This document shows positions 1 through 12,156 of a stretch of DNA of 12,156 nt, piece after piece (position 1 is the first letter of the stretch; the number at the start of each line of letters is the position of its first letter). Below the pieces are notes generated by a model, which saw nothing but the letters and a program-made list of their open reading frames with translations, made no database searches and had not been told where the DNA came from. The stretch comes from a virus. The DNA is taken from UHGV virus genome UHGV-0071740. One strand, given 5' to 3'. The translations under genes and the position numbers were made by a program.

Positions 1-170
1 TTTGGTCATTAGAGGCGCCGCACCCCCTGTGTCTGGCCGCAGCACCACAGAGTGCACAGGCGCGCAGTGACACTGCGCTGGATCGTCTGATGCAGGGGGC
101 ACCGGCACCGCTGGCTGCAGGTAACCCGGCATCTGATGCCGTTAACGATTTGCTGAACACACCAGTGTAA
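1..170 (+). CDS. C: capsid assembly protease C / scaffold Nu3, C-terminal end (5' partial, runs off window start)
   Basis: Frame open from window start to TAA at 168-170; translated tail ...APAPLAAGNPASDAVNDLLNTPV; sits immediately upstream of D as in lambda. Identity rests on position and recollection of lambda, not a search. Confidence 0.7.
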   Translation, partial: WSLEAPHPLCLAAAPQSAQARSDTALDRLMQGAPAPLAAGNPASDAVNDLLNTPV

Positions 171-179
171 GGGATGTTT

Positions 180-512
180 ATGACGAGCAAAGAAACCTTT
201 ACCCATTACCAGCCGCTGGGCAACAGTGACCCGGCTTATACCGCAACCGCGCCCGGCGGATTGAGTGCGAAAGCGCCTGCAATGACCCCGCTGATGCTGG
301 ACACCTCCAGCCGTAAGCTGGTTGCGTGGGATGGCCCCACCGACGGTGCTGCCGTTGGCATTCTTGCGGTTGCTGCTGACCAGACCAGCACCACGCTGAC
401 GTTCTACAAGTCCGGCACGTTCCGTTATGAGGATGTGCTCTGGCCGGAGGCTGCCAGCGACGAGACGAAAAAACGGACCGCGTTTGCCGGAACGGCAATC
501 AGCATCGTTTAA
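180..512 (+). CDS. D: head decoration protein D (110 aa)
   Basis: ORF track 174..512; translation from ATG 180 ([12 protein letters not shown]...[11 protein letters not shown]) matches lambda gpD almost residue for residue as I recall it; the ATG at 174 only adds MF. Confidence 0.95.
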
Positions 513-530
513 CTTTACCCTTCATCACTA

Positions 531-554
531 AAGGCCGCCTGTGCGGCTTTTTTT
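531..554 (+). terminator. GC-rich hairpin plus T-tract between D and E (terminator-like)
   Basis: Stem GCCGC (534-538) / GCGGC (543-547) extendable to about 8 bp, 4-nt loop CTGT, followed by a T run 548-554. Confidence 0.45.
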
Positions 555-567
555 ACGGGATTTTTTT

Positions 568-812
568 ATGTCGATGTACACAACCGCCCAGCTGCTGGCG
601 GCAAATGAGCAGAAATTTAAGTTTGATCCGCTGTTTCTGTGTCTCTTTTTCCGTGAGAGCTATCCCTTCACCACGGAGAAAGTCTATCTCTCACAAATTC
701 CGGGACTGGTAAACATGGCGCTGTACGTTTCGCCGATTGTTTCCGGTGAGGTTATCCGTTCCCGTGGCGGCTCCACCTCTGAATTTACGCCGGGATATGT
801 CAAGCCGAAGCA
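568..812 (+). pseudogene. E: major capsid protein E, N-terminal fragment (codons 1-82), interrupted by insertion
   Basis: Translation from ATG 568 (MSMYTTAQLLAANEQKFKFDPLFL...GYVKPKH) matches the lambda gpE N-terminus; the frame then reads 9 foreign codons (LAWLSEAFV) to a stop at 841-843. The rest of E resumes at 7333. Confidence 0.95.
803..812. repeat. left copy of 10-bp direct repeat AGCCGAAGCA (attL core / target duplication)
   Basis: Identical 10-mer at 803-812 and 7333-7342, exactly at the two points where E coding sequence breaks and resumes. Confidence 0.8.
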
Positions 813-920
813 CTTAGCATGGCTTTCTGAGGCTTTCGTGTAGTTGCTGGTTTTTACACTTAATCTTTTGATAATAAAGAATAAGTTTATCTGGCGCTTT
901 CACTGGATTTTCCTCGTTAT

Positions 921-962
921 CTGTGTGTTGCAATCATCTCTGTATTGCAGCTTGTATTGCTT
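921..962. repeat. direct repeats of TGT(G)TTGCA-type motif (candidate integrase arm-type sites, left end)
   Basis: TGTGTGTTGCAA 923-934, TGTATTGCAG 941-950, TGTATTGC 953-960, the last two 12 bp apart; the same motif recurs at 7234-7256 near the other end. Confidence 0.55.
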
Positions 963-975
963 TTTGGGGCTAAAA

Positions 976-2211
976 ATGGCTGGCGAGAACAAACTGAGCG
1001 ACAAAGCACTTAAAGGATATCTGGGGAAACCCAGAGAAAAGCAGATCACCATTGCTGATGGAAAGGGGCTTTCTATTCGTGTGAGTACCAAGGGGGCTGT
1101 GAGCTTTGTTTTCTTCTACAGGTTAGCAGGTGGCCGGGCTGCTCCGGTCTGGCTAACGTTGGGTAAATATCCTGATATGTCACTCAAACAGGCAAGGGAA
1201 AAGCGCGACGAGTGCCGTGGTTGGTTGGCTGACAAACGTGATCCGCGTATCCAGATTAAGATTCAGGCTGAAGAACGCTTAAAGCCGGTCACAGTGGAGG
1301 ATGCACTAAATTACTGGTATGAAAATTACTGTAAGGTGCGTCGTAAAACTCATGCTGTAACGCTTGGCAGATTTCGAAAGCATATCTTTCCCTATATCGG
1401 TCATTTGCCCGTAAATGACACTCACCTATATGAATGGCTGGACTGTTTTGACCGAATTAAACGTAATGCACCAGTTATGGCGGCGTATGTTTTTTCTGAC
1501 ACTAAATTAGCTCTTCGTTTTTGTCGGGTACGCCAGTACGCGACGTGTGATGTTTTAAAGGATTTGCGCATGAGTGATGTGGGGCAGATTGCAGGTAAGC
1601 GGGATCGGGTTCTGGATGAAGCCGAACTGGGCCAGCTCTGGAAGGCAATTTTTGTCGAGCCTGATTTAAAACTAATGTCTGAATACACGCGAAAAATGTT
1701 TGTGCTTTGTACAGTATTTGGATGTCGAATGAGTGAAGCCCGATTATCTGAATGGAGCGAATGGGATCTCGAAAGTTGGGTTTGGACTGTACCAAAAGAT
1801 CACTCAAAAACTGGTGTTGAAATCGTCAGACCAGTACCTGAAATTCTACGACAGTGGGTAACGGATGTTCACGAAGAGACAAAACATACTGGTTATGTGC
1901 TGGGAAGTCTGCGAATTAGAGAAAGCGTAAGCAAGATTGGGGGGAAAATCGGTAAACGTTTGGGCCATGAAAAACAATGGTCACTACACGACCTTAGAAG
2001 AACGCTATCTACTCATCTAAGTGATCTCGGTGTTGAATTTTATGTAGTAGAACAACTGTTAGGCCATGCGCTACCTGGCGTGGCAGGTGTTTACAACCGG
2101 AGTAAGTTTATGGCTAAAAAACTGGATGCTCTGGAACTCTGGACTACATATCTCAATAGCATCGCAGGTGCTGATTCAAAAGTGACAATCCTCAAACAAA
2201 AGGCTGGTTAA
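976..2211 (+). CDS. int: tyrosine recombinase / phage integrase, P4-like with N-terminal arm-binding domain
   Basis: ORF track 844..2211; most plausible start is ATG 976 (MAGENKLSDKALKGYLGKP...). C-terminal catalytic signature HDLRRT...LLGHA...GVYNRS (conserved His/Arg and putative catalytic Tyr); sits next to the element boundary. Confidence 0.9.
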   Translation: MAGENKLSDKALKGYLGKPREKQITIADGKGLSIRVSTKGAVSFVFFYRLAGGRAAPVWLTLGKYPDMSLKQAREKRDECRGWLADKRDPRIQIKIQAEERLKPVTVEDALNYWYENYCKVRRKTHAVTLGRFRKHIFPYIGHLPVNDTHLYEWLDCFDRIKRNAPVMAAYVFSDTKLALRFCRVRQYATCDVLKDLRMSDVGQIAGKRDRVLDEAELGQLWKAIFVEPDLKLMSEYTRKMFVLCTVFGCRMSEARLSEWSEWDLESWVWTVPKDHSKTGVEIVRPVPEILRQWVTDVHEETKHTGYVLGSLRIRESVSKIGGKIGKRLGHEKQWSLHDLRRTLSTHLSDLGVEFYVVEQLLGHALPGVAGVYNRSKFMAKKLDALELWTTYLNSIAGADSKVTILKQKAG

Positions 2212-2212
2212 C

Positions 2213-2434
2213 ATGAAAAAAATGGCAATTGTTGATAAAAAGGGTCTGGAGTACATTCCTAACATCGATCGTATGATCCGTGAGAAAGAATGTCGGGAGC
2301 TAACCACTCTTGCAAACAGCACACGCTGGAAGCTGGAGAAGGAAGGAAAATTTCCTAAGCGGATCAAGATTGGTTCCACTGCTGTTGCATATCGTCTTTC
2401 AGAAGTGCAGGCATGGATTAGGGGAGAGTGGTAA
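2213..2434 (+). CDS. alpA: AlpA-family (CP4-57 type) DNA-binding regulator / excisionase-like protein
   Basis: 73-aa ORF starting 2 nt after the int stop; small basic protein with ...KRIKIGSTAVAYRLSEVQAWIRGEW, typical of AlpA/Vis-like winged-helix proteins that accompany satellite integrases. Confidence 0.75.
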   Translation: MKKMAIVDKKGLEYIPNIDRMIREKECRELTTLANSTRWKLEKEGKFPKRIKIGSTAVAYRLSEVQAWIRGEW

Positions 2435-3835
2435 GAATTTAGACAGTGGATGGAATCCTATGGGGGGAACCCATAGGGTTTTAAATAACATAAATTCAAA
2501 AACGTGCGTAGTTGATGAGATTATATAATTAGGTGGTAAGTATTGAACTATTTCTCCATCTTCTTCAAAAATATGAATAACTCTTGGGAATAATTCAGGG
2601 CGTATAGGATTTAATGCCTTCGGATTATGAAACATGTATATTGCTGTACACCATGGTTCTTGATATGAAGGTGCATTGACAAGAGCAGTAAAAGGCATTG
2701 GGGTACAGCCTTCATCAGTTTTAATACCTCTAACGATGGATTTGACATTTTTTTGTTCAATCCCTGCCACTACTCCCATTCTATCAAATTTTGGGATGGT
2801 GGCATGTGTCGCAAGTAATATGGCTGAGACATTCTCATTTTTATTAGAGCCGAAAAAATTAGATGGTATACTTCGATTTTCAAATAAATGTTGTTCAATT
2901 TTACTTCCAGAATCCATATCTACACCATACAGATAGCTTTGTAGTGCTGGCATTGATATACTCATCGAAAGTCTGTGTGAGTAATCGTGTAAAGCAATAA
3001 TGAAAGGCTTTCCTTTTGTATGATCTAGTTCCCAATAGCATAATTTTAAGGGTTCAGGTTTATGCCTAACTTTCTTTAATAGAGTGCGGGCAAATTTGAA
3101 TGGCATTTGTTCTTTTACATATCTCTGAAGATCTTCTACTGCCTCATGATCAAGTATCAATTTCTCGGTAGGTTCCTCTTGTTCTGCAACTGTGGCAGCT
3201 TCTACAGCAATATCAATGCCATTTTTTGAGATAATATAATCAGGTTGAGCATAATCTCTGCATATTACGAAATCCATTTCGTAGAAAACTGCGTTTAGAT
3301 AAAGTTCGAATAAGCGAGAGTTAAATGAAGCACTCTGGAAATCTCTGATGAATATTCCATCAGGATCTTTACACCAATAAGCTAACTCTTGCATAACAAT
3401 AAATGCAGGATAGTGTTTGGGTTCCTCAAGTAGCATTCTTAGATAAACGTTTTTTTTATGTTCTGGAACTTTGGCTAGGAATATTGAAAATGCCGACTCT
3501 GATTCGTCACCCTGTATAAAACAACCGTTCTTGTGTAGTGATAATAGCTCTGGTATGGCTTTTTCCATATCAGTAATTAAATCATCTTTAGATTCACGGG
3601 ATACAATTACTTTAATCGCTCTAAATTTTTTATCTAAATCCCTACCTAGAAATATAGCGTTGTAATCATTATCTATTTTACAAAAAACAATTGTTGCTAA
3701 GATTGTGACATCATCCTTTATAAATTTGAACCAACAGATTTCCTCCGAAAAGGTTTTTACGTATGGTGTACGACCATAGAAAAATACATCAAATTGTTCT
3801 TTACTGATTTCTAGCATTTTGTGACTTGTTGTCAT
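2399..3835 (-). CDS. hypothetical 478-aa protein, AT-rich, no family assignable by eye (candidate defence/effector cargo)
   Basis: Long uninterrupted minus-strand ORF; start ATG at 3835 preceded by AAGGA Shine-Dalgarno; lies 23 nt downstream of the RHH gene on the same strand; strongly AT-rich relative to its surroundings. Confidence 0.7.
   Translation of the reverse strand: MTTSHKMLEISKEQFDVFFYGRTPYVKTFSEEICWFKFIKDDVTILATIVFCKIDNDYNAIFLGRDLDKKFRAIKVIVSRESKDDLITDMEKAIPELLSLHKNGCFIQGDESESAFSIFLAKVPEHKKNVYLRMLLEEPKHYPAFIVMQELAYWCKDPDGIFIRDFQSASFNSRLFELYLNAVFYEMDFVICRDYAQPDYIISKNGIDIAVEAATVAEQEEPTEKLILDHEAVEDLQRYVKEQMPFKFARTLLKKVRHKPEPLKLCYWELDHTKGKPFIIALHDYSHRLSMSISMPALQSYLYGVDMDSGSKIEQHLFENRSIPSNFFGSNKNENVSAILLATHATIPKFDRMGVVAGIEQKNVKSIVRGIKTDEGCTPMPFTALVNAPSYQEPWCTAIYMFHNPKALNPIRPELFPRVIHIFEEDGEIVQYLPPNYIISSTTHVFEFMLFKTLWVPPIGFHPLSKFLPLSPNPCLHF
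2456..2482 (+). terminator. rho-independent terminator-like hairpin after alpA
   Basis: TCCTATGGG (2456-2464) / CCCATAGGG (2470-2478), 5-nt loop GGGAA, then TTTT 2479-2482; begins 22 nt after the alpA stop. Confidence 0.55.
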
Positions 3836-3858
3836 AGAAGAATCCTTTATGCAAATTA

Positions 3859-4053
3859 TCAGCCTTTAGGTGTTATTCCTTGTTTTATTAGTTCGGCACG
3901 AGCCAGTTCTTTTAGCCAGTTACCTAAGCTCATCCCTTCTTTGGCAGCGACATTAACCATTTGTTCTTTTAATTCTGGGTTAATACGGACTTGGAATGCT
4001 GGTGCTTTACCTGCACCTTTCGGTTGTTTATCACGTTGAATGATAGTTGACAT
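3859..4053 (-). CDS. Arc/CopG-like ribbon-helix-helix DNA-binding protein (putative regulator or antitoxin)
   Basis: 64-aa ORF; segment PAFQVRINPELKEQMVNVAAKEGMSLGNWLKELARAEL fits the beta-strand then helix pattern of Arc/MetJ-type RHH proteins; first gene of the operon with the 478-aa ORF. Confidence 0.6.
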   Translation of the reverse strand: MSTIIQRDKQPKGAGKAPAFQVRINPELKEQMVNVAAKEGMSLGNWLKELARAELIKQGITPKG

Positions 4054-4095
4054 GTGTGTACCTATTGCTTAGTATGATTCTTGATAGGTACACAC
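4054..4095. promoter_or_regulatory. perfect 12-bp inverted repeat GTGTGTACCTAT-N18-ATAGGTACACAC (operator-like)
   Basis: Arms at 4054-4065 and 4084-4095; lies between the predicted -10 and the RHH start codon (4051-4053). Confidence 0.6.
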
Positions 4096-4113
4096 CTTAT
4101 CATGTTTTATTGC

Positions 4114-4142
4114 TATATAACAACGCCCTGCAGTGCTCGCAA
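4114..4142 (-). promoter_or_regulatory. predicted sigma70 promoter for the RHH/478-aa operon
   Basis: On the minus strand: -35 TTGCGA (4142-4137), 17-bp spacer, -10 TATATA (4119-4114); would start transcription about 50 nt upstream of the RHH ATG. Confidence 0.5.
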
Positions 4143-4156
4143 CACATACAGGGCGT
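4123..4156. promoter_or_regulatory. second inverted repeat ACGCCCTG-N18-CAGGGCGT overlapping the predicted -35
   Basis: Perfect 8-bp arms at 4123-4130 and 4149-4156, with the same 18-nt spacer length as the 12-bp palindrome. Confidence 0.4.
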
Positions 4157-4390
4157 CTAACCACCAACGATAGCAACAGTATCGAGGTAGCTATGAGAAA
4201 TCATACCACACACCCGCAAGGGCGGGATTCGCACAACCTGAATAAATACATCTGGCGTTTTATCGCCCTGAGCACCGCACAACCACGCGTAATACACATC
4301 GAGGCCGCCAGCGAACAGGAAGCCCGCCAGCAATCCCCAACTGGCTACGTGATGATATTCGCCGCCCGTATTCGTCAGGAGGTGTGCCAT
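4157..4390 (-). CDS. possible small hydrophobic protein (77 aa); coding status uncertain
   Basis: ORF track; GC-rich block with frequent G at codon position 1 and common E. coli codons in this frame; hydrophobic stretch WGLLAGFLFAGGLDVYYAWLCGA. But its start codon overlaps the start and Shine-Dalgarno of the divergent + gene, which is awkward. Confidence 0.3.
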   Translation of the reverse strand: MAHLLTNTGGEYHHVASWGLLAGFLFAGGLDVYYAWLCGAQGDKTPDVFIQVVRIPPLRVCGMISHSYLDTVAIVGG

Positions 4391-4613
4391 GAATGATCTT
4401 TATTTTAAAGTGCTGACACATGCTGAAAACGCGCTCGTTTGTGGCAAAAATATGCGAGAAATCTTATCAACCTGGCTTGATGGGACAACAAATGCAGAAC
4501 ACGATGAACGGGATGCTAATTTAGCTGGAGCGTTAATTACGTTACTTGATCCTGTCATCAAAGAGCTGGATGAAGCTATAAAAATACACGACCAGAGCTA
4601 TACCGGAGAATAA
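4389..4613 (+). CDS. hypothetical protein (74 aa), first gene of the primase operon
   Basis: ATG 4389 preceded by AGGAGG 4377-4382; followed 3 nt later by the next ORF. Confidence 0.55.
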   Translation: MNDLYFKVLTHAENALVCGKNMREILSTWLDGTTNAEHDERDANLAGALITLLDPVIKELDEAIKIHDQSYTGE

Positions 4614-4616
4614 AAA

Positions 4617-4904
4617 ATGAAAAATAAATTTTCTGGCTTTATTGCCAGCGGTCAAACTCATTCAAAAATCAGCCTTGGGGATATTTTCAAAGACAGCTAT
4701 GGCTATCGGGTAAAGATTATTTCGGTTGATGATCGTCGTGTCTCTTATTTGCGTGATGGTTATGATTTTGAATGTGTTATGCCGCGTCAGCAGTTCGAAA
4801 GAGATTTCATTCTGGTAAAAAATTGCAAGACAGATAATCAGAGGCGTGCCGCAGGCTATATCCGTAAAATTCGGGCAATGTTAGTTGCCGGAGGTAACAA
4901 ATGA
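4617..4904 (+). CDS. hypothetical protein (95 aa), translationally coupled to primase
   Basis: ATG 4617 preceded by GGAGA; its stop overlaps the primase start (ATGA at 4901-4904). Confidence 0.55.
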   Translation: MKNKFSGFIASGQTHSKISLGDIFKDSYGYRVKIISVDDRRVSYLRDGYDFECVMPRQQFERDFILVKNCKTDNQRRAAGYIRKIRAMLVAGGNK

Positions 4905-6667
4905 AACGTGCTCCGAACTTAAAATACCAACCGCGCGACAAAATGACGGAAGTCATCATTTTTGCTGGCAGTGATGCCTGGAGCCATGCAAAAGAATGGA
5001 ATGAATGGGCAGGTAAGCATATTGCAGCAGATGATACACCACCAGTCATTCTGGGTACGGAACAACTGGAAAACCTGGATGATATGCAAATTATCGATGA
5101 AGGCCGTCATTATGTGCGTGTTTATCGTGCCGGAAAGATTGCAGAGAAAAGTCTGACGAAGGTTGCGACATTACTTGCTATTGCAGGCGTAAAGGAAGCA
5201 CGTTGTTACCGTAGCTTTGTTGATCGAGAGCCTGAAGACTGGACTCCGCGCCTTGTCGGCCTAAAAGCTGAAGCGGAGCATGGGGAAAGTCTGGTGATTG
5301 AACTGCCAGTGAAGAAGGCTGAGCGCAAAAATGACGAGCGTGCTTCATCTTTGGCGTTGAATCAGATGGGGGCCAGCCAGCGCGGTGAAGTTCTCCTTGC
5401 ACATTACGGCGGCGAACTGGCAATCAATGCCGACTCTGACACCGTTCATCATTACAACGGCGTTGTATGGGAGCCGGTTCAGGATAAAGAGTTACAGCGT
5501 GCTATGGCGCAGATTTTCATTGATGCGGAGATCAGCTATTCGCAGAACGCTATTAAATCGGCGGTAGATACCATGAAGTTAAGTTTGCCTGTAATGGGGA
5601 ATACAGCCCGTAACCTGATTGGATTCAGTAACGGGGTATTTGATACCAGAACTGGTAATTTTCGGGAGCATAACAAAAACGACTGGTTGTTAATTGCCAG
5701 TGAATTACCTTTCAGCCCACCAGCAGAGGGGGAAACGCTGGCAACACATGCGCCGAATTTCTGGAAGTGGTTGCGCCGTTCGGTGGCTGAGAATGACCGC
5801 AAGGCAGATCGCGTACTGGCGGCATTATTCATGGTGCTGGCGAACCGGTACGACTGGCAGTTATTCATTGAGGTAACAGGGCCGGGGGGAAGTGGTAAAA
5901 GTGTGATGGCGGAGATTTGCACCATGCTGGCGGGTAAGGCTAATACAGTATCAGCAAGCATGAAGGCGCTGGAAGATGCAAGGGAACGTGCGTTAGTGGT
6001 TGGCTTTTCGCTGATTATCATGCCGGATATGACCCGCTACGCTGGTGATGGGGCAGGGATTAAGGCCATTACAGGCGGTGACAAGGTGGCAATTGACCCG
6101 AAACACAAAGCCCCCTATTCAACGCGTATTCCGGCAGTAGTGCTGGCGGTTAACAATAACGCCATGTCATTCAGTGACCGCAGCGGGGGGATCTCACGTC
6201 GTCGGGTGATATTCAATTTTTCGGAAGTTGTACCGGAGAACGAACGCGATTCGATGCTGGCGGAAAAAATAGAAGGTGAGCTGGCGGTAGTGATTCGTCA
6301 TCTGCTTACAAGGTTTGCTGATCAGGACGAAGCCAGACGCCTGTTATATGAGCAGCAGAAATCTGAAGAAGCACTGGCGATAAAGCGAGAGGGGGATTCG
6401 CTGGTGGACTTCTGCGGTTATCTCATGGCATCGGTAATGTGTGATGGCCTGTTAGTGGGTAATGCTGAAATTGTGCCATTCAGCCCACGCAGGTATCTCT
6501 ATCATGCCTATCTTGATGAGCTGTTCGTTCCATGTGCATCACCGAGTTTATTACGAAGAGTACCTAACCCATTTACAACTGCAGAACAACCGCCGAGAAT
6601 TTGTTTGAAGATATTTTCAGTATGTTGGTCGGCAGATAGGTTAAGTTCTTTTGAAAGAGTTTTATAA
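4901..6667 (+). CDS. P4-family primase/helicase-like replication protein (D5_N-like region, SF3-type P-loop), C-terminus apparently truncated or chimeric
   Basis: 588-aa ORF; Walker A GPGGSGKS encoded near 5880-5900; hydrophobic-D Walker B-like LIIMPD; overall pattern of phage/plasmid primase P4-family C-terminal domain; the last ~50 codons are antisense to the HEPN gene and look like read-through. Confidence 0.8.
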   Translation: MKRAPNLKYQPRDKMTEVIIFAGSDAWSHAKEWNEWAGKHIAADDTPPVILGTEQLENLDDMQIIDEGRHYVRVYRAGKIAEKSLTKVATLLAIAGVKEARCYRSFVDREPEDWTPRLVGLKAEAEHGESLVIELPVKKAERKNDERASSLALNQMGASQRGEVLLAHYGGELAINADSDTVHHYNGVVWEPVQDKELQRAMAQIFIDAEISYSQNAIKSAVDTMKLSLPVMGNTARNLIGFSNGVFDTRTGNFREHNKNDWLLIASELPFSPPAEGETLATHAPNFWKWLRRSVAENDRKADRVLAALFMVLANRYDWQLFIEVTGPGGSGKSVMAEICTMLAGKANTVSASMKALEDARERALVVGFSLIIMPDMTRYAGDGAGIKAITGGDKVAIDPKHKAPYSTRIPAVVLAVNNNAMSFSDRSGGISRRRVIFNFSEVVPENERDSMLAEKIEGELAVVIRHLLTRFADQDEARRLLYEQQKSEEALAIKREGDSLVDFCGYLMASVMCDGLLVGNAEIVPFSPRRYLYHAYLDELFVPCASPSLLRRVPNPFTTAEQPPRICLKIFSVCWSADRLSSFERVL

Positions 6668-7173
6668 AGCTCTGACATTTCAATATTTTTATTATTATAC
6701 TGAATGCCCATATCATCAAGAATGTGTTTGCAAACTGTTTCAAGAAGTGTTCTTGCGGAGGTTATCGCACCATCCGGATCTGTATGGCGCCGTTCAAGTG
6801 CTTTTATCCAAACGGCGTGGACTCCATCCTCGTTAAACTTTCTTAATACATCAGATATGTCTTCATCCGCTGGAGCTTTATTTTTCCCTTCTAGATAGTC
6901 CAGCATCGGCTGAAATGCCTTATAAATCAAATCTCTCCGGGGGGCATACTTTTCAGTCTTTTTTATAAATCCCCAAAATTCTTTTAGTGAGCGATTAGTT
7001 CTCACAAACTCTGGTAATAGCTGATGTAAAGGAGGATTTTGTAAGAAATATGTTCTTAGAAGCAAATAATCATTATTAGCTTCATCCTGGGCTCCTGTAG
7101 CTCTTGCAATTAGTATGTTTTGAAGCGCTACTGCGCGCTCTAGGTCATTTTGAAGGGTATCTATAATATTCAT
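6508..7173 (-). CDS. HEPN-type abortive-infection-like protein (Abi_C-like), 221 aa
   Basis: Minus-strand ORF, AT-rich; C-terminal GLGTLRNKLGDAHG contains an R-x6-H motif of the HEPN/Abi_C type; only 7 residues follow the motif His, so the protein may be C-terminally shortened. Confidence 0.55.
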   Translation of the reverse strand: MNIIDTLQNDLERAVALQNILIARATGAQDEANNDYLLLRTYFLQNPPLHQLLPEFVRTNRSLKEFWGFIKKTEKYAPRRDLIYKAFQPMLDYLEGKNKAPADEDISDVLRKFNEDGVHAVWIKALERRHTDPDGAITSARTLLETVCKHILDDMGIQYNNKNIEMSELYKTLSKELNLSADQHTENIFKQILGGCSAVVNGLGTLRNKLGDAHGTNSSSR

Positions 7174-7233
7174 AACAAATCTTTATTCACTTCATTTGTG
7201 GGTTGATAATTGAATGGTTTGTACATTGATTTC

Positions 7234-7256
7234 TGTGTATTGCAGTGTGTATTGCA
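7234..7256. repeat. tandem direct repeat TGTGTATTGCA x2 (candidate integrase arm-type sites, right end)
   Basis: Copies at 7234-7244 and 7246-7256 (12-bp register), about 80-100 bp inside the right junction; same motif and orientation as the left-end copies. Confidence 0.55.
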
Positions 7257-7332
7257 ACATAGCCATTCAGGTAGAGATTATGCTCTATTTTTCCTCTTAT
7301 ATCATTCACATACTTACACCATTGACTCATGT

Positions 7333-7342
7333 AGCCGAAGCA
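7333..7342. repeat. right copy of 10-bp direct repeat AGCCGAAGCA (attR core)
   Basis: Identical to 803-812; lambda-like E sequence resumes from here. Confidence 0.8.
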
Positions 7343-8123
7343 TGAAGTGAATCCGCAGATGACCCTGCGTCGCCTGCCGGATGAAGATCCGCAGAATCTG
7401 GCGGACCCGGCTTACCGCCGCCGTCGCATCATCATGCAGAACATGCGTGACGAAGAGCTGGCCATTGCTCAGGTCGAAGAGATGCAGGCAGTTTCTGCCG
7501 TGCTTAAGGGCAAATACACCATGACCGGTGAAGCCTTCGATCCGGTTGAGGTGGATATGGGCCGCAGTGAGGAGAATAACATCACGCAGTCCGGCGGCAC
7601 GGAGTGGAGCAAGCGTGACAAGTCCACGTATGACCCGACCGACGATATCGAAGCCTACGCGCTGAACGCCAGCGGTGTGGTGAATATCATCGTGTTCGAT
7701 CCGAAAGGCTGGGCGCTGTTCCGTTCCTTCAAAGCCGTCAAGGAGAAGCTGGATACCCGTCGTGGCTCTAATTCCGAGCTGGAGACAGCGGTGAAAGACC
7801 TGGGCAAAGCGGTGTCCTATAAGGGGATGTATGGCGATGTGGCCATCGTCGTGTATTCCGGACAGTACGTGGAAAACGGCGTCAAAAAGAACTTCCTGCC
7901 GGACAACACGATGGTGCTGGGGAACACTCAGGCACGCGGTCTGCGCACCTATGGCTGCATTCAGGATGCGGACGCACAGCGCGAAGGCATTAACGCCTCT
8001 GCCCGTTACCCGAAAAACTGGGTGACCACCGGCGATCCGGCGCGTGAGTTCACCATGATTCAGTCAGCACCGCTGATGCTGCTGGCTGACCCTGATGAGT
8101 TCGTGTCCGTACAACTGGCGTAA
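7333..8123 (+). pseudogene. E: major capsid protein E, C-terminal fragment (codon ~80 to end), no start codon of its own
   Basis: Frame open from 7335, with an in-frame TAG at 7332-7334 just upstream; translation ...KPKHEVNPQMTLRRLPDEDPQN...DEFVSVQLA matches the remainder of lambda gpE. Confidence 0.95.
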
Positions 8124-8125
8124 TC

Positions 8126-8143
8126 ATGGCCCTTCGGGGCCAT
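8126..8143 (+). other. stable hairpin ATGGCCC-TTCG-GGGCCAT in the E-FI intergenic region
   Basis: 7-bp perfect stem with a UUCG tetraloop immediately after the E stop; its ATG (8126) is a spurious ORF start. Confidence 0.45.
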
Positions 8144-8164
8144 TGTTTCTCTGTGGAGGAGTCC

Positions 8165-8563
8165 ATGACGAAAGATGAACTGATTGCCCGTCTCCGCTCG
8201 CTGGGTGAACAACTGAACCGTGATGTCAGCCTGACGGGGACGAAAGAAGAACTGGCGCTCCGTGTGGCAGAGCTGGAAGAGGAGCTTGATGACACGGATG
8301 AAACTGCCGGTCAGGACACCCCTCTCAGCCGGGAAAATGTGCTGACCGGACATGAAAATGAGGTGGGATCAGCGCAGCCGGATACCGTGATTCTGGATAC
8401 GTCTGAACTGGTCACGGTCGTGGCACTGGTGAAGCTGCATACTGATGCACTTCACGCCACGCGGGATGAACCTGTGGCATTTGTGCTGCCGGGAACGGCG
8501 TTTCGTGTCTCTGCCGGTGTGGCAGCCGAAATGACAGAGCGCGGCCTGGCCAGAATGCAATAA
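8165..8563 (+). CDS. FI: DNA packaging / head assembly protein FI
   Basis: Translation from ATG 8165 (MTKDELIARLRSLGEQLNRD...ERGLARMQ) matches lambda gpFI; GGAGGA Shine-Dalgarno 8155-8160. Confidence 0.9.
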   Translation: MTKDELIARLRSLGEQLNRDVSLTGTKEELALRVAELEEELDDTDETAGQDTPLSRENVLTGHENEVGSAQPDTVILDTSELVTVVALVKLHTDALHATRDEPVAFVLPGTAFRVSAGVAAEMTERGLARMQ

Positions 8564-8574
8564 CGGGAGGCGCT

Positions 8575-8928
8575 GTGGCTGATTTCGATAACCTGTTCGA
8601 TGCTGCCATTGCCCGCGCCGATGAAACGATACGCGGGTACATGGGAACGTCAGCCACCATGACATCCGGTGAGCAGTCAGGTGCGGTGATACGTGGTGTT
8701 TTTGATGACCCTGAAAATATCAGCTATGCCGGACAGGGCGTGCGCGTTGAAGGCTCCAGCCCGTCCCTGTTTGTCCGGACTGATGAGGTGCGGCAGCTGC
8801 GGCGTGGAGACACGCTGACCATCGGTGAGGAAAATTTCTGGGTAGATCGGGTTTCGCCGGATGATGGCGGAAGTTGTCATCTCTGGCTTGGACGGGGCGT
8901 ACCGCCTGCCGTTAACCGTCGCCGCTGA
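8575..8928 (+). CDS. FII: head-tail joining protein FII
   Basis: GTG start 8575 after GGGAGG; translation MADFDNLFDAAIARADETIRGYMG...PPAVNRRR matches lambda gpFII. Confidence 0.9.
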   Translation: MADFDNLFDAAIARADETIRGYMGTSATMTSGEQSGAVIRGVFDDPENISYAGQGVRVEGSSPSLFVRTDEVRQLRRGDTLTIGEENFWVDRVSPDDGGSCHLWLGRGVPPAVNRRR

Positions 8929-8939
8929 AAGGGGGATGT

Positions 8940-9518
8940 ATGGCCATAAAAGGTCTTGAGCAGGCCGTTGAAAACCTCAGCCGTATCAGCAAAACGGCGG
9001 TGCCTGGTGCCGCCGCAATGGCCATTAACCGCGTTGCTTCATCCGCGATATCGCAGTCGGCGTCACAAGTTGCCCGTGAGACAAAGGTACGCCGGAAACT
9101 GGTAAAGGAAAGGGCCAGGCTGAAAAGGGCCACGGTCAAAAATCCGCAGGCCAGAATCAAAGTTAACCGGGGGGATTTGCCCGTAATCAAGCTGGGTAAT
9201 GCGCGGGTTGTCCTTTCGCGCCGCAGGCGTCGTAAAAAGGGGCAGCGTTCATCCCTGAAAGGTGGCGACAGCGTGCTTGTGGTGGGTAACCGTCGTATTC
9301 CCGGCGCGTTTATTCAGCAACTGAAAAATGGCCGGTGGCATGTCATGCAGCGTGTGGCCGGGAAAAACCGTTACCCCATTGATGTGGTGAAAATCCCGAT
9401 GGCGGTGCCGCTGACCACGGCGTTTAAACAAAATATTGAGCGGATACGGCGTGAACGTCTTCCGAAAGAGCTGGGCTATGCGCTGCAGCATCAACTGAGG
9501 ATGGTAATAAAGCGATGA
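8940..9518 (+). CDS. Z: tail assembly protein Z
   Basis: Translation MAIKGLEQAVENLSRISKTAVPGAAAMAINRV... matches lambda gpZ. Confidence 0.9.
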   Translation: MAIKGLEQAVENLSRISKTAVPGAAAMAINRVASSAISQSASQVARETKVRRKLVKERARLKRATVKNPQARIKVNRGDLPVIKLGNARVVLSRRRRRKKGQRSSLKGGDSVLVVGNRRIPGAFIQQLKNGRWHVMQRVAGKNRYPIDVVKIPMAVPLTTAFKQNIERIRRERLPKELGYALQHQLRMVIKR

Positions 9519-9910
9519 AACATACTGAACTCCGTGCAGCCGTACTGGATGCACTGGAGAAGCATGACACCGGGGCGACGTTTTTTGATGGTCGCCCCGC
9601 TGTTTTTGATGAGGCGGATTTTCCGGCAGTTGCCGTTTATCTCACCGGCGCTGAATACACGGGCGAAGAGCTGGACAGCGATACCTGGCAGGCGGAGCTG
9701 CATATCGAAGTTTTCCTGCCTGCTCAGGTGCCGGATTCAGAGCTGGATGCGTGGATGGAGTCCCGGATTTATCCGGTGATGAGCGATATCCCGGCACTGT
9801 CAGATTTGATCACCAGTATGGTGACCAGCGGCTATGACTACCGGCGCGACGATGATGCGGGCCTGTGGAGGTCAGCCGCTCTTACTTATGTCATTACCTA
9901 TGAAATGTGA
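9515..9910 (+). CDS. U: tail terminator protein U
   Basis: Start overlaps the Z stop (ATGA); translation [31 protein letters not shown]... matches lambda gpU. Confidence 0.9.
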
Positions 9911-9917
9911 GGACGCT

Positions 9918-10658
9918 ATGCCTGTACCAAATCCTACAATGCCGGTGAAAGGTGCCGGGACCACCCTGTGGGTTTATAAGGGGAGCGGTGACCCTTATGC
10001 GAATCCGCTTTCAGACGTTGACTGGTCGCGTCTGGCAAAAGTTAAAGACCTGACGCCCGGCGAACTGACCGCTGAGTCCTATGACGACAGCTATCTCGAT
10101 GATGAAGATGCAGACTGGACTGCGACCGGGCAGGGGCAGAAATCTGCCGGAGATACCAGCTTCACGCTGGCGTGGATGCCCGGAGAGCAGGGGCAGCAGG
10201 CGCTGCTGGCGTGGTTTAATGAAGGCGATACCCGTGCCTATAAAATCCGCTTCCCGAACGGCACGGTCGATGTGTTCCGTGGCTGGGTCAGCAGTATCGG
10301 TAAGGCGGTGACGGCGAAGGAAGTGATCACCCGCACGGTGAAAGTCACCAATGTGGGACGTCCGTCGATGGCAGAAGATCGCAGCACGGTAACAGCGGCA
10401 ACCGGCATGACCGTGACGCCTGCCAGCACCTCGGTGGTGAAAGGGCAGAGCACCACGCTGACCGTGGCCTTCCAGCCGGAGGGCGTAACCGACAAGAGCT
10501 TTCGTGCGGTGTCTGCGGATAAAACAAAAGCCACCGTGTCGGTCAGTGGTATGACCATCACCGTGAACGGCGTTGCTGCAGGCAAGGTCAACATTCCGGT
10601 TGTATCCGGTAATGGTGAGTTTGCTGCGGTTGCAGAAATTACCGTCACCGCCAGTTAA
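9918..10658 (+). CDS. V: major tail tube protein V with C-terminal Ig-like domain
   Basis: Translation from ATG 9918 ([22 protein letters not shown]...) matches lambda gpV, 246 aa; the ORF track start at 9834 is an upstream extension overlapping U. Confidence 0.95.
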
Positions 10659-10673
10659 TCCGGAGAGTCAGCG

Positions 10674-11096
10674 ATGTTCCTGAAAACCGAATCATTTGAA
10701 CATAACGGTGTGACCGTCACGCTTTCTGAACGGTCAGCCCTGCAGCGCATTGAGCATCTCGCCCTGATGAAACGGCAGGCAGAACAGGCGGAGTCAGACA
10801 GCAACCGGAAGTTTACTGTGGAAGACGCCATCAGAACCGGCGCGTTTCTGGTGGCGATGTCCCTGTGGCATAACCATCCGCAGAAGACGCAGATGCCGTC
10901 CATGAATGAAGCCGTTAAACAGATTGAGCAGGAAGTGCTTACCACCTGGCCCACGGAGGCAATTTCTCATGCTGAAAACGTGGTGTACCGGCTGTCTGGT
11001 ATGTATGAGTTTGTGGTGAATGATGCCCCTGAACAGGCAGAGGACGCCGGGCCTGCAGAGCCTGTTTCTGCGGGAAAGTGTTCGACGGTGAGCTGA
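10674..11096 (+). CDS. G: tail assembly chaperone G
   Basis: Translation MFLKTESFEHNGVTVTLSERSALQRIEHLALMKRQAEQ... matches lambda gpG, 140 aa. Confidence 0.9.
   Translation: MFLKTESFEHNGVTVTLSERSALQRIEHLALMKRQAEQAESDSNRKFTVEDAIRTGAFLVAMSLWHNHPQKTQMPSMNEAVKQIEQEVLTTWPTEAISHAENVVYRLSGMYEFVVNDAPEQAEDAGPAEPVSAGKCSTVS
11072..11078 (+). promoter_or_regulatory. programmed -1 ribosomal frameshift slippery heptamer GGGAAAG (G to G-T fusion)
   Basis: Heptamer in the G frame as G GGA AAG, six codons before the G stop; the T frame opens in the -1 frame exactly here. Confidence 0.85.
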
Positions 11097-11512
11097 GTTT
11101 TGCCCTGAAACTGGCGCGCGAGATGGGGCGACCCGACTGGCGTGCCATGCTTGCCGGGATGTCATCCACGGAGTATGCCGACTGGCACCGCTTTTACAGT
11201 ACCCATTATTTTCATGATGTTCTGCTGGATATGCACTTTTCCGGGCTGACGTACACCGTGCTCAGCCTGTTTTTCAGCGATCCGGATATGCATCCGCTGG
11301 ATTTCAGTCTGCTGAACCGGCGCGAGGCTGACGAAGAGCCTGAAGATGATGTGCTGATGCAGAAAGCGGCAGGGCTTGCCGGAGGCGTTCGTTTTGGCCC
11401 GGACGGGAATGAAGTTATCCCCGCTTCCCCGGATGTGGCGGACATGACGGAGGATGACGTAATGCTGATGACAGTATCAGAAGGGATCGCAGGAGGAGTC
11501 CGGTATGGCTGA
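11078..11512 (+). CDS. T: tail assembly protein T, expressed only as a G-T fusion via the -1 frameshift
   Basis: -1 frame ORF with no convincing own start; translation ...FDGELSFALKLAREMGRPDWRAMLAGMSSTEYADWHRFYSTHYFHDV... matches lambda gpT. Confidence 0.85.
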   Translation: MFDGELSFALKLAREMGRPDWRAMLAGMSSTEYADWHRFYSTHYFHDVLLDMHFSGLTYTVLSLFFSDPDMHPLDFSLLNRREADEEPEDDVLMQKAAGLAGGVRFGPDGNEVIPASPDVADMTEDDVMLMTVSEGIAGGVRYG

Positions 11513-12156
11513 ACCGGTAGGCGATCTGGTCGTTGATTTAAGTCTGGATGCGGCCAGATTTGACGAGCAGATGGCCAGAGTCAGGCGTCATTTTTCCGGT
11601 ACGGAAAGTGATGCGAAAAAAACAGCGGCAGTCGTTGAACAGTCGCTGAGCCGACAGGCGCTGGCTGCACAGAAAGCGGGGATTTCCGTCGGGCAGTATA
11701 AAGCCGCCATGCGTATGCTGCCTGCACAGTTCACCGACGTGGCCACGCAGCTTGCAGGCGGGCAAAGTCCGTGGCTGATCCTGCTGCAACAGGGGGGTCA
11801 GGTTAAGGACTCCTTCGGCGGGATGATCCCCATGTTCAGGGGGCTTGCCGGCCACCTCGCTGGCGGTGGCGACCGGTGCGCTGGCGTATGCCTGGTATCA
11901 GGGCAACTCAACCCTGTCCGATTTCAACAAAACGCTGGTCCTTTCCGGCAATCAGGCGGGACTGACGGCAGATCGTATTCTGGCCCTGTCCAGAGCCGGG
12001 CAGGCGGCAGGGCTGACGTTTAACCAGACCAGCGAGTCACTCAGCGCACTGGTTAAGGCGGGGGTAAGCGGTGAGGCTCAGATTGCGTCCATCAGCCAGA
12101 GTGTGGCGCGTTTCTCCTCTGCATCCGGCGCGGCGGGGGACAAGGTCGCTGAAGCC
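11505..12156 (+). pseudogene. H: tail tape measure protein H, 5' part, frame-disrupted near 11850 (3' partial, runs off window end)
   Basis: ATG 11505 (MAEPVGDLVVDLSLDAARFDEQ...) matches the lambda gpH N-terminus, but this frame ends at 12023 after a Gly/Arg-rich nonsense tail, while the +1 frame is open from 11827 to the window end and reads ATSLAVATGALAYAWYQGNSTLSDFNKTLVLSGNQAGLTADR... Confidence 0.7.

Follow-up and report, generated by a model that had tools for sequence, protein, structure and literature searches.

A probable internally deleted helper-embedded PICI within the major capsid gene of a lambda-type prophage

Organization of the locus

The window analysed here is the whole stretch of 12,156 nucleotides of the virus genome UHGV-0071740, and its features are collected in Table 1. 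It contains a lambda-type major capsid gene, E, which is flanked by lambda D and by FI to H and is interrupted within codons K79-H82 by a 6.5-kb element (813-7342). The DNA between the repeats that bound this element is unrelated to lambda. In a collection of 50,697 deposited phage records, 18% of it finds a match at 80% identity; this match is a segment of the primase gene, and no counterpart of the element is present in the collection. The genes int, alpA and pri lie on the + strand, as do D, E and FI through H.

Table 1. Features of the interrupted capsid gene and of the element within it (positions are those of the window)
Feature	Position	Strand	Evidence or remark
E 5′ fragment, codons 1-82	568..812	+	Lambda-type major capsid gene; reconstruction 99.8% identical to lambda E
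attL core AGCCGAAGCA (identity block)	803..812	+	Repeat search; block tabulated in the supplement of PMC10111431
Element body, probable internally deleted 6.5-kb HE-PICI	813..7332	+	
Degenerate third half-site TGTGTTGCA	923-931		Near the left (P′) doubled motif
Left (P′) doubled motif tgTGTATTGCantgTGTATTGCa	939..961	+	Begins 131.5 bp downstream of core centre
Tyrosine integrase, 411 aa, intact	976..2211	+	Pfam Arm-DNA-bind_3, Phage_integrase
AlpA-family excisionase/regulator, 73 aa	2213..2434	+	Pfam Phage_AlpA E = 2.7e-15; PHROG 'excisionase and transcriptional regulator'
PD-T7-1 anti-phage defence gene	2399..3835	-	PADLOC E = 9.1e-154, profile 1-448 of 452
Small Arc/HicB-like ribbon-helix-helix protein, 64 aa	3859..4053	-	Pfam HicB E = 5e-4 (weak); PHROG Arc-like repressor E = 1.2e-5
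Icd-like / repressor-family small protein	4133..4396	+	phrog_6196 E = 2.7e-53
Conserved hypothetical protein, 74 aa	4389..4613	+	phrog_2196 E = 3.9e-35
DUF4222 protein	4617..4904	+	Pfam DUF4222 E = 3.4e-22
D5-type primase/helicase	4901..6667	+	Pfam D5_N, DUF5906
AbiJ-like abortive-infection gene, truncated	6508..7173	-	Pfam Abi_C; PADLOC AbiJ
Junction of ~4.7-kb internal deletion	6513..6513	.	1-nt microhomology
Right (P) doubled TGTATTGC motif	7234..7256	+	Ends 81.5 bp upstream of core centre
attR core AGCCGAAGCA	7333..7342	+	Repeat search
E 3′ fragment, codons 83-341	7343..8123	+	In-silico rejoining and comparison with lambda E
Reconstructed attB			GGATATGTCAAGCCGAAGCATGAAGTGAATCC
Reconstructed attP			TTGACTCATGTAGCCGAAGCACTTAGCATGGC

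The integrase is identical at 409 of 411 residues (99.5%) to that of 11capE, an element of E. coli strain NRG857c that belongs to the helper-embedded PICIs (HE-PICIs). At the DNA level, int-alpA is 99.4% identical to NRG857c 1199340-1200958, a segment inside the published coordinates of 11capE. No intrinsic-terminator-like site was found on the + strand between positions 812 and 976. The zone adjoining alpA holds PD-T7-1 as cargo, a gene whose defence activity has been validated by Vassallo et al. In sibling contigs this gene stops at the equivalent of 2486 and encodes 449 aa, while a stop-loss found in the window alone adds 29 codons. The Icd-like gene is called from 4193 to 4396 in an identical contig, and PGAP names its counterpart in strain SCU-316 'host cell division inhibitor Icd-like protein'. 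The 74-aa hypothetical protein also occurs in 11capE (WP_000999172.1).

Interruption and restoration of the capsid gene

The broken E frame continues from the 5′ fragment into the element and reaches a stop at 841-843. When the element is excised in silico (568-812 joined to 7343-8126), a single uninterrupted ORF of 341 codons results, which matches lambda E (J02459 6135-7160) at 99.8% identity across all 1026 nt; Pfam Phage_cap_E is recorded for the E gene call in an identical contig. As long as the element is integrated, E is split and no capsids can be made by the prophage; the exact gene returns on precise excision.

Two and only two copies of AGCCGAAGCA are present in the window, with 0.04 expected by chance, and none of 200 shuffled windows contained two copies. 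An identical identity block is given for the HE-PICIs of the E:Phage_cap_E:80 group in the supplement of PMC10111431. Membership of this E-site group is defined by a core of the family A[A/G]CC[C/G]AAGCA near codon 80 in a lambda-type E, as found here, and also by an attP without replacement sequence. In the IMG/VR loci there are relatives in which the attL core differs from the attR core, which reduces the shared requirement to AAGCA. In addition to the cores, the arrangement TGTATTGC-N4-TGTATTGC is present at 941-960 and 7236-7255 (two found, 0.01 expected). The distances of these doubled motifs from the core centre, -81.5 and +131.5 bp, agree with those published for HE-PICIs, to which this motif is specific: 81 +/- 2 bp on the upstream side of the attP centre and 132 +/- 2 bp on its downstream side (PMC10111431).

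A first-pass annotation of this DNA had proposed that E is split near codon 82 by 6.5 kb of foreign DNA and that a perfect 10-bp direct repeat bounds the insert, and both proposals hold: E is lambda-identical on rejoining, and the repeat is not reproduced by shuffling. The same annotation described the arm-type repeats as inward-facing. This has to be corrected, as both copies of the doubled motif lie on the + strand and are co-oriented direct repeats.

An internal deletion within the element

Positions 32-6513 of the window are 99.2% identical to SCU-316, and positions 6513-12156 are 97% identical to strain KMi006, in which the two breakpoint ends stand 4.7 kb apart. The breakpoint was mapped against SCU-316, KMi006 and NRG857c, and the deletion that it marks was overlooked in the first-pass annotation, together with the loss of replication and packaging functions. 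At this junction two genes are joined. The primase is authentic to about codon 538 (nt 6513), and its final 50 codons are antisense Abi sequence, out of context; the full-length primase of 11capE (606 aa) carries at its C-terminus a further domain, Pox_D5 (residues 497-592), that is absent from the window. The AbiJ-like gene retains 221 of 253 aa and has lost its C-terminus, with an Abi_C match covering 2-57 of 83 positions vs 2-82 in KMi006.

The deletion removed other elements as well. In 11capE, at least 10 ACTGTTCACC iterons occupy a 288-nt gap after pri, and none is found in the element of the window. Likewise, a BLAST search with the helper cos region recovers in full-length relatives the published cos-like segment, which in 11capE is 258 bp long and has 90% identity to that region, and no counterpart in the window element. 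The exact lambda cosN, GGGCGGCGACCT, was found in helper prophages only; the element copies have no match to it apart from a single 2-mismatch site inside the primase gene, which is at chance level. In all, the deletion cost the element its iteron origin, its SSB gene and its cos-like site, the C-terminal part of the primase and the 3′ end of the AbiJ-like gene, and also the E-like capsid gene and the D-like decoration gene that belong to the island itself. What was retained comprises the integrase, AlpA, both att cores, both arm motifs and PD-T7-1.

The deletion is real: the exact 588-aa fusion ORF that it creates recurs across several samples, on no fewer than 24 contigs, one of these contigs being 401 kb long. 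None of 5426 complete E. coli genomes contains the variant, a scan of species-representative genomes for the deletion junction returned nothing, and none of 13 complete IMG/VR elements is as short as 6.5 kb. Sibling contigs differ by about 10 substitutions in 12 kb, and element and flanks alike are nearly identical, which fits clonal descent of one host lineage and not repeated transfer.

With its int and alpA genes, its two att cores and its two arm motifs all undamaged, the 6.5-kb copy probably still excises. It would be unable to replicate alone or to be packaged as a satellite, where the loss of origin and cos function is deduced from the absence of the corresponding sequence motifs.

Recurrence at the same site

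Among 5426 complete E. coli genomes, 173 contain the identical left junction at full length and 45 the identical right junction; int-alpA is found in 175-179 of the 5426. All 50 IMG/VR contigs that carry the left end of the element have the 5′ part of E directly upstream. Both junctions are also base-identical in independent metagenome contigs. A scan of species-representative genomes for the left end returned nothing. The host prophage of SCU-316 lies at the Qin locus, while those of published HE-PICIs lie at icd, ybhC, thrS and proP (PMC10111431), and this diversity of loci was counted in favor of site-specific integration in E.

The first-pass annotation had proposed to look for the same element at the same position of E elsewhere, and it does occur there; the junctions of the window, which recur in complete genomes, are not an assembly chimera. 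The annotation's reading of the locus as site-specific integration of a PICI-type satellite also stands, given an intact integrase and AlpA, a precise duplication, exact restoration of E and recurrent junctions. For the attP junction, which it proposed to look for, the outcome is divided. No attP junction was found in IMG/VR, although one contig from a gut metagenome (L004) contains the circular or tandem junction of a full-length sibling, with the core AACCCAAGCA. The attP of the 6.5-kb copy itself was not found in the IMG/VR and metagenome scans.

Relation to known elements

An HE-PICI at this E site with the same integrase was described by Tommasini, Mageeney and Williams (NAR Genom Bioinform 2023; PMC10111431), who reported 201 cases that use the E site. 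For 11capE, precise excision after mitomycin C was demonstrated by qPCR and deep sequencing, virions of the element or of its helper were not recovered by the authors, and a satellite life cycle was inferred by analogy with EcCICFT073 (PMC10111431). The concept has been known since 2023, and so have the precise insertion site, the integrase, the att motifs and the way in which the element excises (PMC10111431). A phage structural gene as target, which the first-pass annotation had recognized, corresponds to what was published, namely a satellite in the major capsid gene of its helper prophage; the arrangement is not new, as that annotation had taken it to be.

The element of the window shares with 11capE (Eco567.11capE, NRG857c) the integrase, AlpA, the target codons in a lambda-type E, the family of 10-bp identity blocks, the doubled TGTATTGC motif at -81/+132, the co-orientation with the late genes and the DUF4222-primase block. 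It differs in size, 6.5 kb compared with about 11 kb, and, unlike 11capE, is devoid of the primase C-terminus, the iteron origin, SSB, the cos-like segment, the E-like capsid and D-like decoration genes and a second AlpA-like HTH. The cargo is also different: PD-T7-1 and a truncated AbiJ-like gene in the window, a pair made up of a DUF262 gene (NsnA/PD-T4-2_A-like) and a HEPN gene in 11capE. Placement in the HE-PICI clade and its E-site subclade is made by sequence identity (the 409/411 match) and not by a phylogenetic tree.

Gram-negative PICIs such as EcCICFT073 (Fillol-Salom et al. 2018, ISME J; PMC6092414) have the same int-alpA-...-pri order, unidirectional genes and lambdoid helpers. The gene set, gene order and att sites of this class are present in the window, and the size of 6.5 kb, below the usual 10-20 kb, is due to the internal deletion. 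The complete primase, origin, capsid homologue and cos that make up the typical replication and late zones of HE-PICIs and Gram-negative PICIs are absent. The loss of these zones marks a deletion derivative and leaves the family placement unchanged. Classical PICIs integrate in chromosomal genes and meet their helper only in trans, whereas this element lies inside its helper's capsid gene.

Taken together, these features indicate, with a probability of roughly 0.88, that the element is a deleted copy of an HE-PICI of the E:Phage_cap_E:80 group (11capE family), which acts as an excisable, passively replicated interruption of E that carries PD-T7-1.

Alternative readings

It might be argued that the 6.5-kb copy works in full as a minimal satellite, one that excises, replicates through its truncated primase or the helper, is packaged and transfers itself. 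Its integration and excision apparatus (int, alpA, att cores, arm motifs) is whole, the primase keeps D5_N and the DUF5906 helicase core, and the variant is present in several samples. Nevertheless, this is very unlikely: the deleted block contained the iteron origin and the cos-like segment as well as the Pox_D5 part of the primase, the siblings show the pattern of clonal descent, and neither the complete E. coli genomes (0/5426) nor the complete IMG/VR elements (0/13) include so short a form. Still less can be said for the notion that the junctions are a chimera, or a random insertion or rearrangement, even though the window is a metagenome contig with a coverage of 4.2 and has private oddities that resemble assembly errors. 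That notion is effectively refuted by the base-identical junctions in complete genomes and independent contigs, the precise 10-bp duplication with exact restoration of E, and the 201 published cases at the same site (PMC10111431).

A different family assignment, to P4-like satellites or capsid-forming PICIs, could be considered on account of the P4-type integrase architecture, the D5-type primase, and the capsid and decoration genes of full-length relatives. Indeed, P4 resembles the element in that its integrase is of a related clade, its regulator AlpA-like, its primase of the D5 type and its cargo of defence genes variable. However, none of the nine ORFs is a homologue of psu, sid, delta or epsilon in Pfam and PHROG scans, and the CI/C4 RNA of P4 is likewise lacking: an Rfam scan of the window (E <= 1) did not recover the C4/isrK immunity RNA, its sole match being a chance-level Pseudomonas sRNA, in H. 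P4 has a P2-type helper and a tRNA gene as target, in place of the lambdoid helper and phage-gene target seen here. As for capsid-forming PICIs, portal, protease, large terminase and connector genes are absent from the window copy, SCU-316, KMi006 and NRG857c; the three full-length relatives have an E-like capsid and a D-like decoration gene only, with a Nu1-like gene in addition in KMi006. With an integrase 99.5% identical to that of the HE-PICI type element, such an assignment is extremely improbable.

A model for the split capsid gene

In the HE-PICI reading preferred here, the integrase recombined attP, with its A[A/G]CC[C/G]AAGCA core and co-oriented doubled TGTATTGC motifs, with the matching sequence at codons 79-82 of the prophage E; int, alpA and pri have the orientation of the late operon. 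No capsids can be formed from the split gene until precise excision gives E back. Once the prophage is induced, the composite would replicate, and Q-antiterminated late transcription from D and E′ may then enter int-alpA and cause the island to excise late. That such read-through triggers excision was hypothesized in PMC10111431. The satellite would in this way be replicated in cis by its helper and probably transcribed in cis as well. The 6.5-kb copy, in turn, may persist as an excisable interruption of E that bears PD-T7-1 and is replicated passively.

The skin element in sigK of B. subtilis and phi10403S in comK of Listeria are known examples of 'regulated gene integrity', or phage regulatory switches. 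In both, as here, integration of an element keeps a gene inactive, and precise excision at a developmentally set time makes the gene whole again. Unlike in these systems, it is a gene of the helper phage, itself a mobile element, that is interrupted here, and the timing would serve the satellite and not the cell. The concept of regulated gene integrity is cited in PMC10111431.

A more speculative view, which is unlikely, is that the 6.5-kb derivative represents a stable reduced form that relies on the helper and spreads in cis, having become a cassette carried by the helper, able to excise and controlling capsid production. The unexcised composite might then fit the lambda head, because 6.5 kb is added rather than about 11 kb; co-packaging of the composite was posed as an open question in PMC10111431, where an 11-kb insert was judged too large. 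If this were true, the capsid protein for packaging the unexcised composite would be supplied by sibling genomes that have already excised the element, and the reduced form would have kept only int, alpA, the att sites and one defence gene.

The window thus offers no new principle, yet it is a striking case in which the capsid gene of a helper stays broken until the satellite departs. To what was published, the present analysis adds an independent count of E-site elements (the int-alpA frequency given above) and a natural deletion derivative from multiple samples that has its excision machinery and is without origin, cos-like site and late genes. It also adds that, in these elements, the two variable slots contain known defence genes (PD-T7-1, AbiJ-like, DUF262/HEPN), which are undiscussed in PMC10111431.

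A defective helper, which a frameshift in the tape-measure gene had suggested, was rejected as a property of the lineage, as siblings with the same element have an intact H of 853 aa. The window itself shows an apparent 26-nt deletion in H at 11849, as well as apparent substitutions at 2453-2501, which may be assembly errors.

Interruption of the capsid gene

The morphogenesis genes of the window are of lambda type and arranged as in lambda (D, E, FI, FII, Z, U, V, G, T, H), with E interrupted. The decamer AGCCGAAGCA is found in exactly two copies, at 803-812 and 7333-7342 (chance expectation 0.04; two copies in 0 of 200 shuffles). As the first-pass annotation had described, these copies form a direct repeat at the ends of the interruption: when 568-812 is joined to 7343-8126, the product is an open frame of 341 codons that is 99.8% identical to lambda E (J02459 6135-7160) over the full 1026 nt. 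The split, placed earlier near codon ~82, is located at K79-H82. Integration is site-specific, and precise removal of the insert restores E. Intact E homologues are present in 89 phage records; the 6.5-kb insert has essentially no counterpart among deposited phage genomes. E departs from lambda E at just two nucleotides. One of these lies in codon 25 (640-642), which is TGT (Cys) in place of Arg; no difference from sibling contigs, that is, contigs with the same element, was found there.

The left junction recurs base for base in 173 of 5426 complete E. coli genomes, and the right junction in 45 of them. Since both are reproduced exactly, an assembly chimera, which had been raised as the alternative to integration, is excluded. 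Sibling contigs carry an intact 853-aa H and the full Nu1-to-J late region, and thus, judging from gene content, the helper of this lineage is not obviously defective.

Relationship to published islands

The type element of this site, 11capE, is an 11-kb phage-inducible chromosomal island (PICI) of E. coli NRG857c; it occupies a prophage capsid gene E of lambda type and has an identity block of 10 bp (Tommasini, Mageeney and Williams 2023, PMC10111431). That work reports another 201 cases for this site (group E:Phage_cap_E:80) and 290 for other late genes. It also describes a doubled motif, tgTGTATTGCantgTGTATTGCa, that is specific to helper-embedded PICIs (HE-PICIs) and flanks the attP centre at 81 +/- 2 bp on the upstream side and 132 +/- 2 bp on the downstream side. 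Mitomycin C leads to precise excision of the composite, which replicates before the satellite itself excises and E is restored (PMC10111431).

The window integrase is identical to that of 11capE at 409 of 411 positions, and the int-alpA DNA is 99.4% identical to NRG857c 1199340-1200958, a span within the published 11capE coordinates. AGCCGAAGCA is among the identity blocks tabulated for the site group (PMC10111431), one doubled motif ends 81.5 bp before and the other starts 131.5 bp after the core centres, and int, alpA and pri share the orientation of E. Therefore, the window element is a member of the published HE-PICI family at its published site. In effect, the first-pass annotation was right in both observation and interpretation, including that of a site-specific satellite, except that the terminal repeats it described as inward-facing, which are the two copies of the doubled motif, are co-oriented. 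The phenomenon has already been published in detail for this family and site, and the residual interest lies in the short derivative and its defence cargo.

Genes and motifs of the insert
Feature	Position	Strand	Remarks
Doubled motif TGTATTGC-N4-TGTATTGC	941-960, 7236-7255	both +	co-oriented copies
Tyrosine integrase with arm-binding domain	976-2211	+	
AlpA	2213-2434	+	
PD-T7-1 defence protein	2399-3835	-	PADLOC E = 9e-154, full profile
Arc/HicB-like small protein	3859-4053	-	
Icd-like/repressor-family protein	4133-4396	+	
Conserved 74-aa protein	4389-4613	+	
DUF4222	4617-4904	+	
D5_N/DUF5906 primase	4901-6667	+	
AbiJ-like Abi_C protein	6508-7173	-	

Immediately upstream of the left doubled motif there is a third, degenerate half-site, TGTGTTGCA (923-931); with it, the P' arm has three half-sites and the P arm two.

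Internal deletion

Comparison with the full-length elements of SCU-316, KMi006 and NRG857c maps a breakpoint to 6513, to the left of which the window follows SCU-316 (99.2%) and to the right KMi006 (97%). The two ends are 4.7 kb apart in KMi006 and share 1 nt of microhomology. Primase codon ~538 is thereby followed by the 3′ part of the convergent AbiJ-like gene, read in antisense; the result is a 588-aa chimeric ORF and an Abi protein truncated to 221 aa by loss of its last 32 codons. The deletion also took away the Pox_D5 C-terminal domain of the primase, the gene for SSB, the E-like capsid and D-like decoration genes that belong to the element itself, and a second gene for an AlpA-like HTH protein. 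Lost as well is the 288-nt stretch that follows pri; in 11capE it contains at least 10 ACTGTTCACC iterons and is presumed to act as origin, and no such iterons are found in the window element. A 258-bp cos-like segment, which in 11capE has 90% identity to the cos region of the helper, is likewise absent from the window.

The deletion is real: at least 24 contigs, one of them 401 kb long and together representing several samples, contain the exact 588-aa ORF. It is also rare: the fusion is found in 0 of 5426 complete E. coli genomes, no E-site elements of 5-9 kb appear in the lists of PMC10111431, and the 13 complete IMG/VR copies measure 10.4-11.7 kb. Sibling contigs differ very little from the window, whether in the element or in its flanks, which fits clonal descent within one host lineage.

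Recurrence and excision

Of 5426 complete E. coli genomes, 175-179 contain int-alpA, and among the 60 records listed, 58 have a 'major capsid protein' fragment next to it. All 50 IMG/VR contigs that include the left end of the element have E 5′ sequence immediately upstream of it; their cores are AGCCGAAGCA (27), AACCCAAGCA (19), AACCGAAGCA (2) and AGCCCAAGCA (2). In two of them, L036 and L050, the attL and attR cores differ, AGCCGAAGCA against AACCCAAGCA. AAGCA is the only sequence that attP and attB necessarily share, so strand exchange must occur within it. The host prophage locus is Qin in SCU-316, and icd, ybhC, thrS and proP are listed in the published table (PMC10111431); such different chromosomal sites speak for several integrations and against inheritance of a single one.

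An attP junction of a sibling element was also encountered. A human gut metagenome contig (L004, ENA ORSG01002381), 99.96% identical to the KMi006 element, has the order pri - late zone - Abi - attP - int - alpA, with the junction of a full-length sibling (right end - AACCCAAGCA - left end) at 6602-6639. This contig, which spans attP, is direct evidence that the sibling takes a circular, concatemeric or tandem form in a natural sample.

Excision after induction occurs in 11capE (PMC10111431). From lambda biology, and as proposed in PMC10111431, Q-antiterminated late transcription would proceed through D and E' into int-alpA. Because of this read-through, the island would exit late, once passively replicated as part of the composite. 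The + strand between 812 and 976 has no terminator-like site. The window copy probably retains its excision machinery and has presumably lost autonomous replication and cos-dependent packaging; it may thus persist vertically as an excisable interruption of E carrying PD-T7-1.

Defence cargo

These HE-PICIs have two variable slots, after alpA and before attR, that hold genes with a known or candidate role in defence. The window carries PD-T7-1, whose function was validated by Vassallo et al.; 11capE, a DUF262 NsnA/PD-T4-2_A-like gene and a HEPN gene (L003, NRG857c, 12537-14253); KMi006, an AbiJ-like gene (L002 11149-11910); and SCU-316, a gene annotated as restriction endonuclease that has no PADLOC match. 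Defence cargo is not discussed in the 2023 paper (PMC10111431).

Contig quality and cohesive ends

The window is ENA contig ERZ1742012 NODE_1002, at 4.2x coverage. Three features are private to it relative to sibling contigs (1-31, 2453-2501 and 11849) and may be assembly errors. Positions 1-31 align with neither sibling contigs nor related genomes, all alignments beginning at 32, and are probably a contig-end artefact. Eight substitutions cluster at 2453-2501, also relative to SCU-316; that at 2487 (A for C) destroys the stop codon of PD-T7-1 and lengthens its reading frame by 29 codons over the alpA 3′ end. A 26-nt deletion at 11849/11850 frameshifts the tape-measure gene H (11505-12023), with a stop at 12023; at this position, H is intact in contigs L005 and L010 and consists of Ns in L006.

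In full-length relatives, the cos-like segment has flanks with about 90% identity to the cos region of the helper. When NRG857c (L003 about 12089-12100) and the SCU-316 element segment (L001 24701-24910) are compared with helper cosN (L001 9404-9415), the right half of the 12-nt cohesive-end sequence differs, GGGCGTCAGGCG in the element and GGGCGGCGACCT in the helper, so the sticky ends of element and helper would be incompatible.
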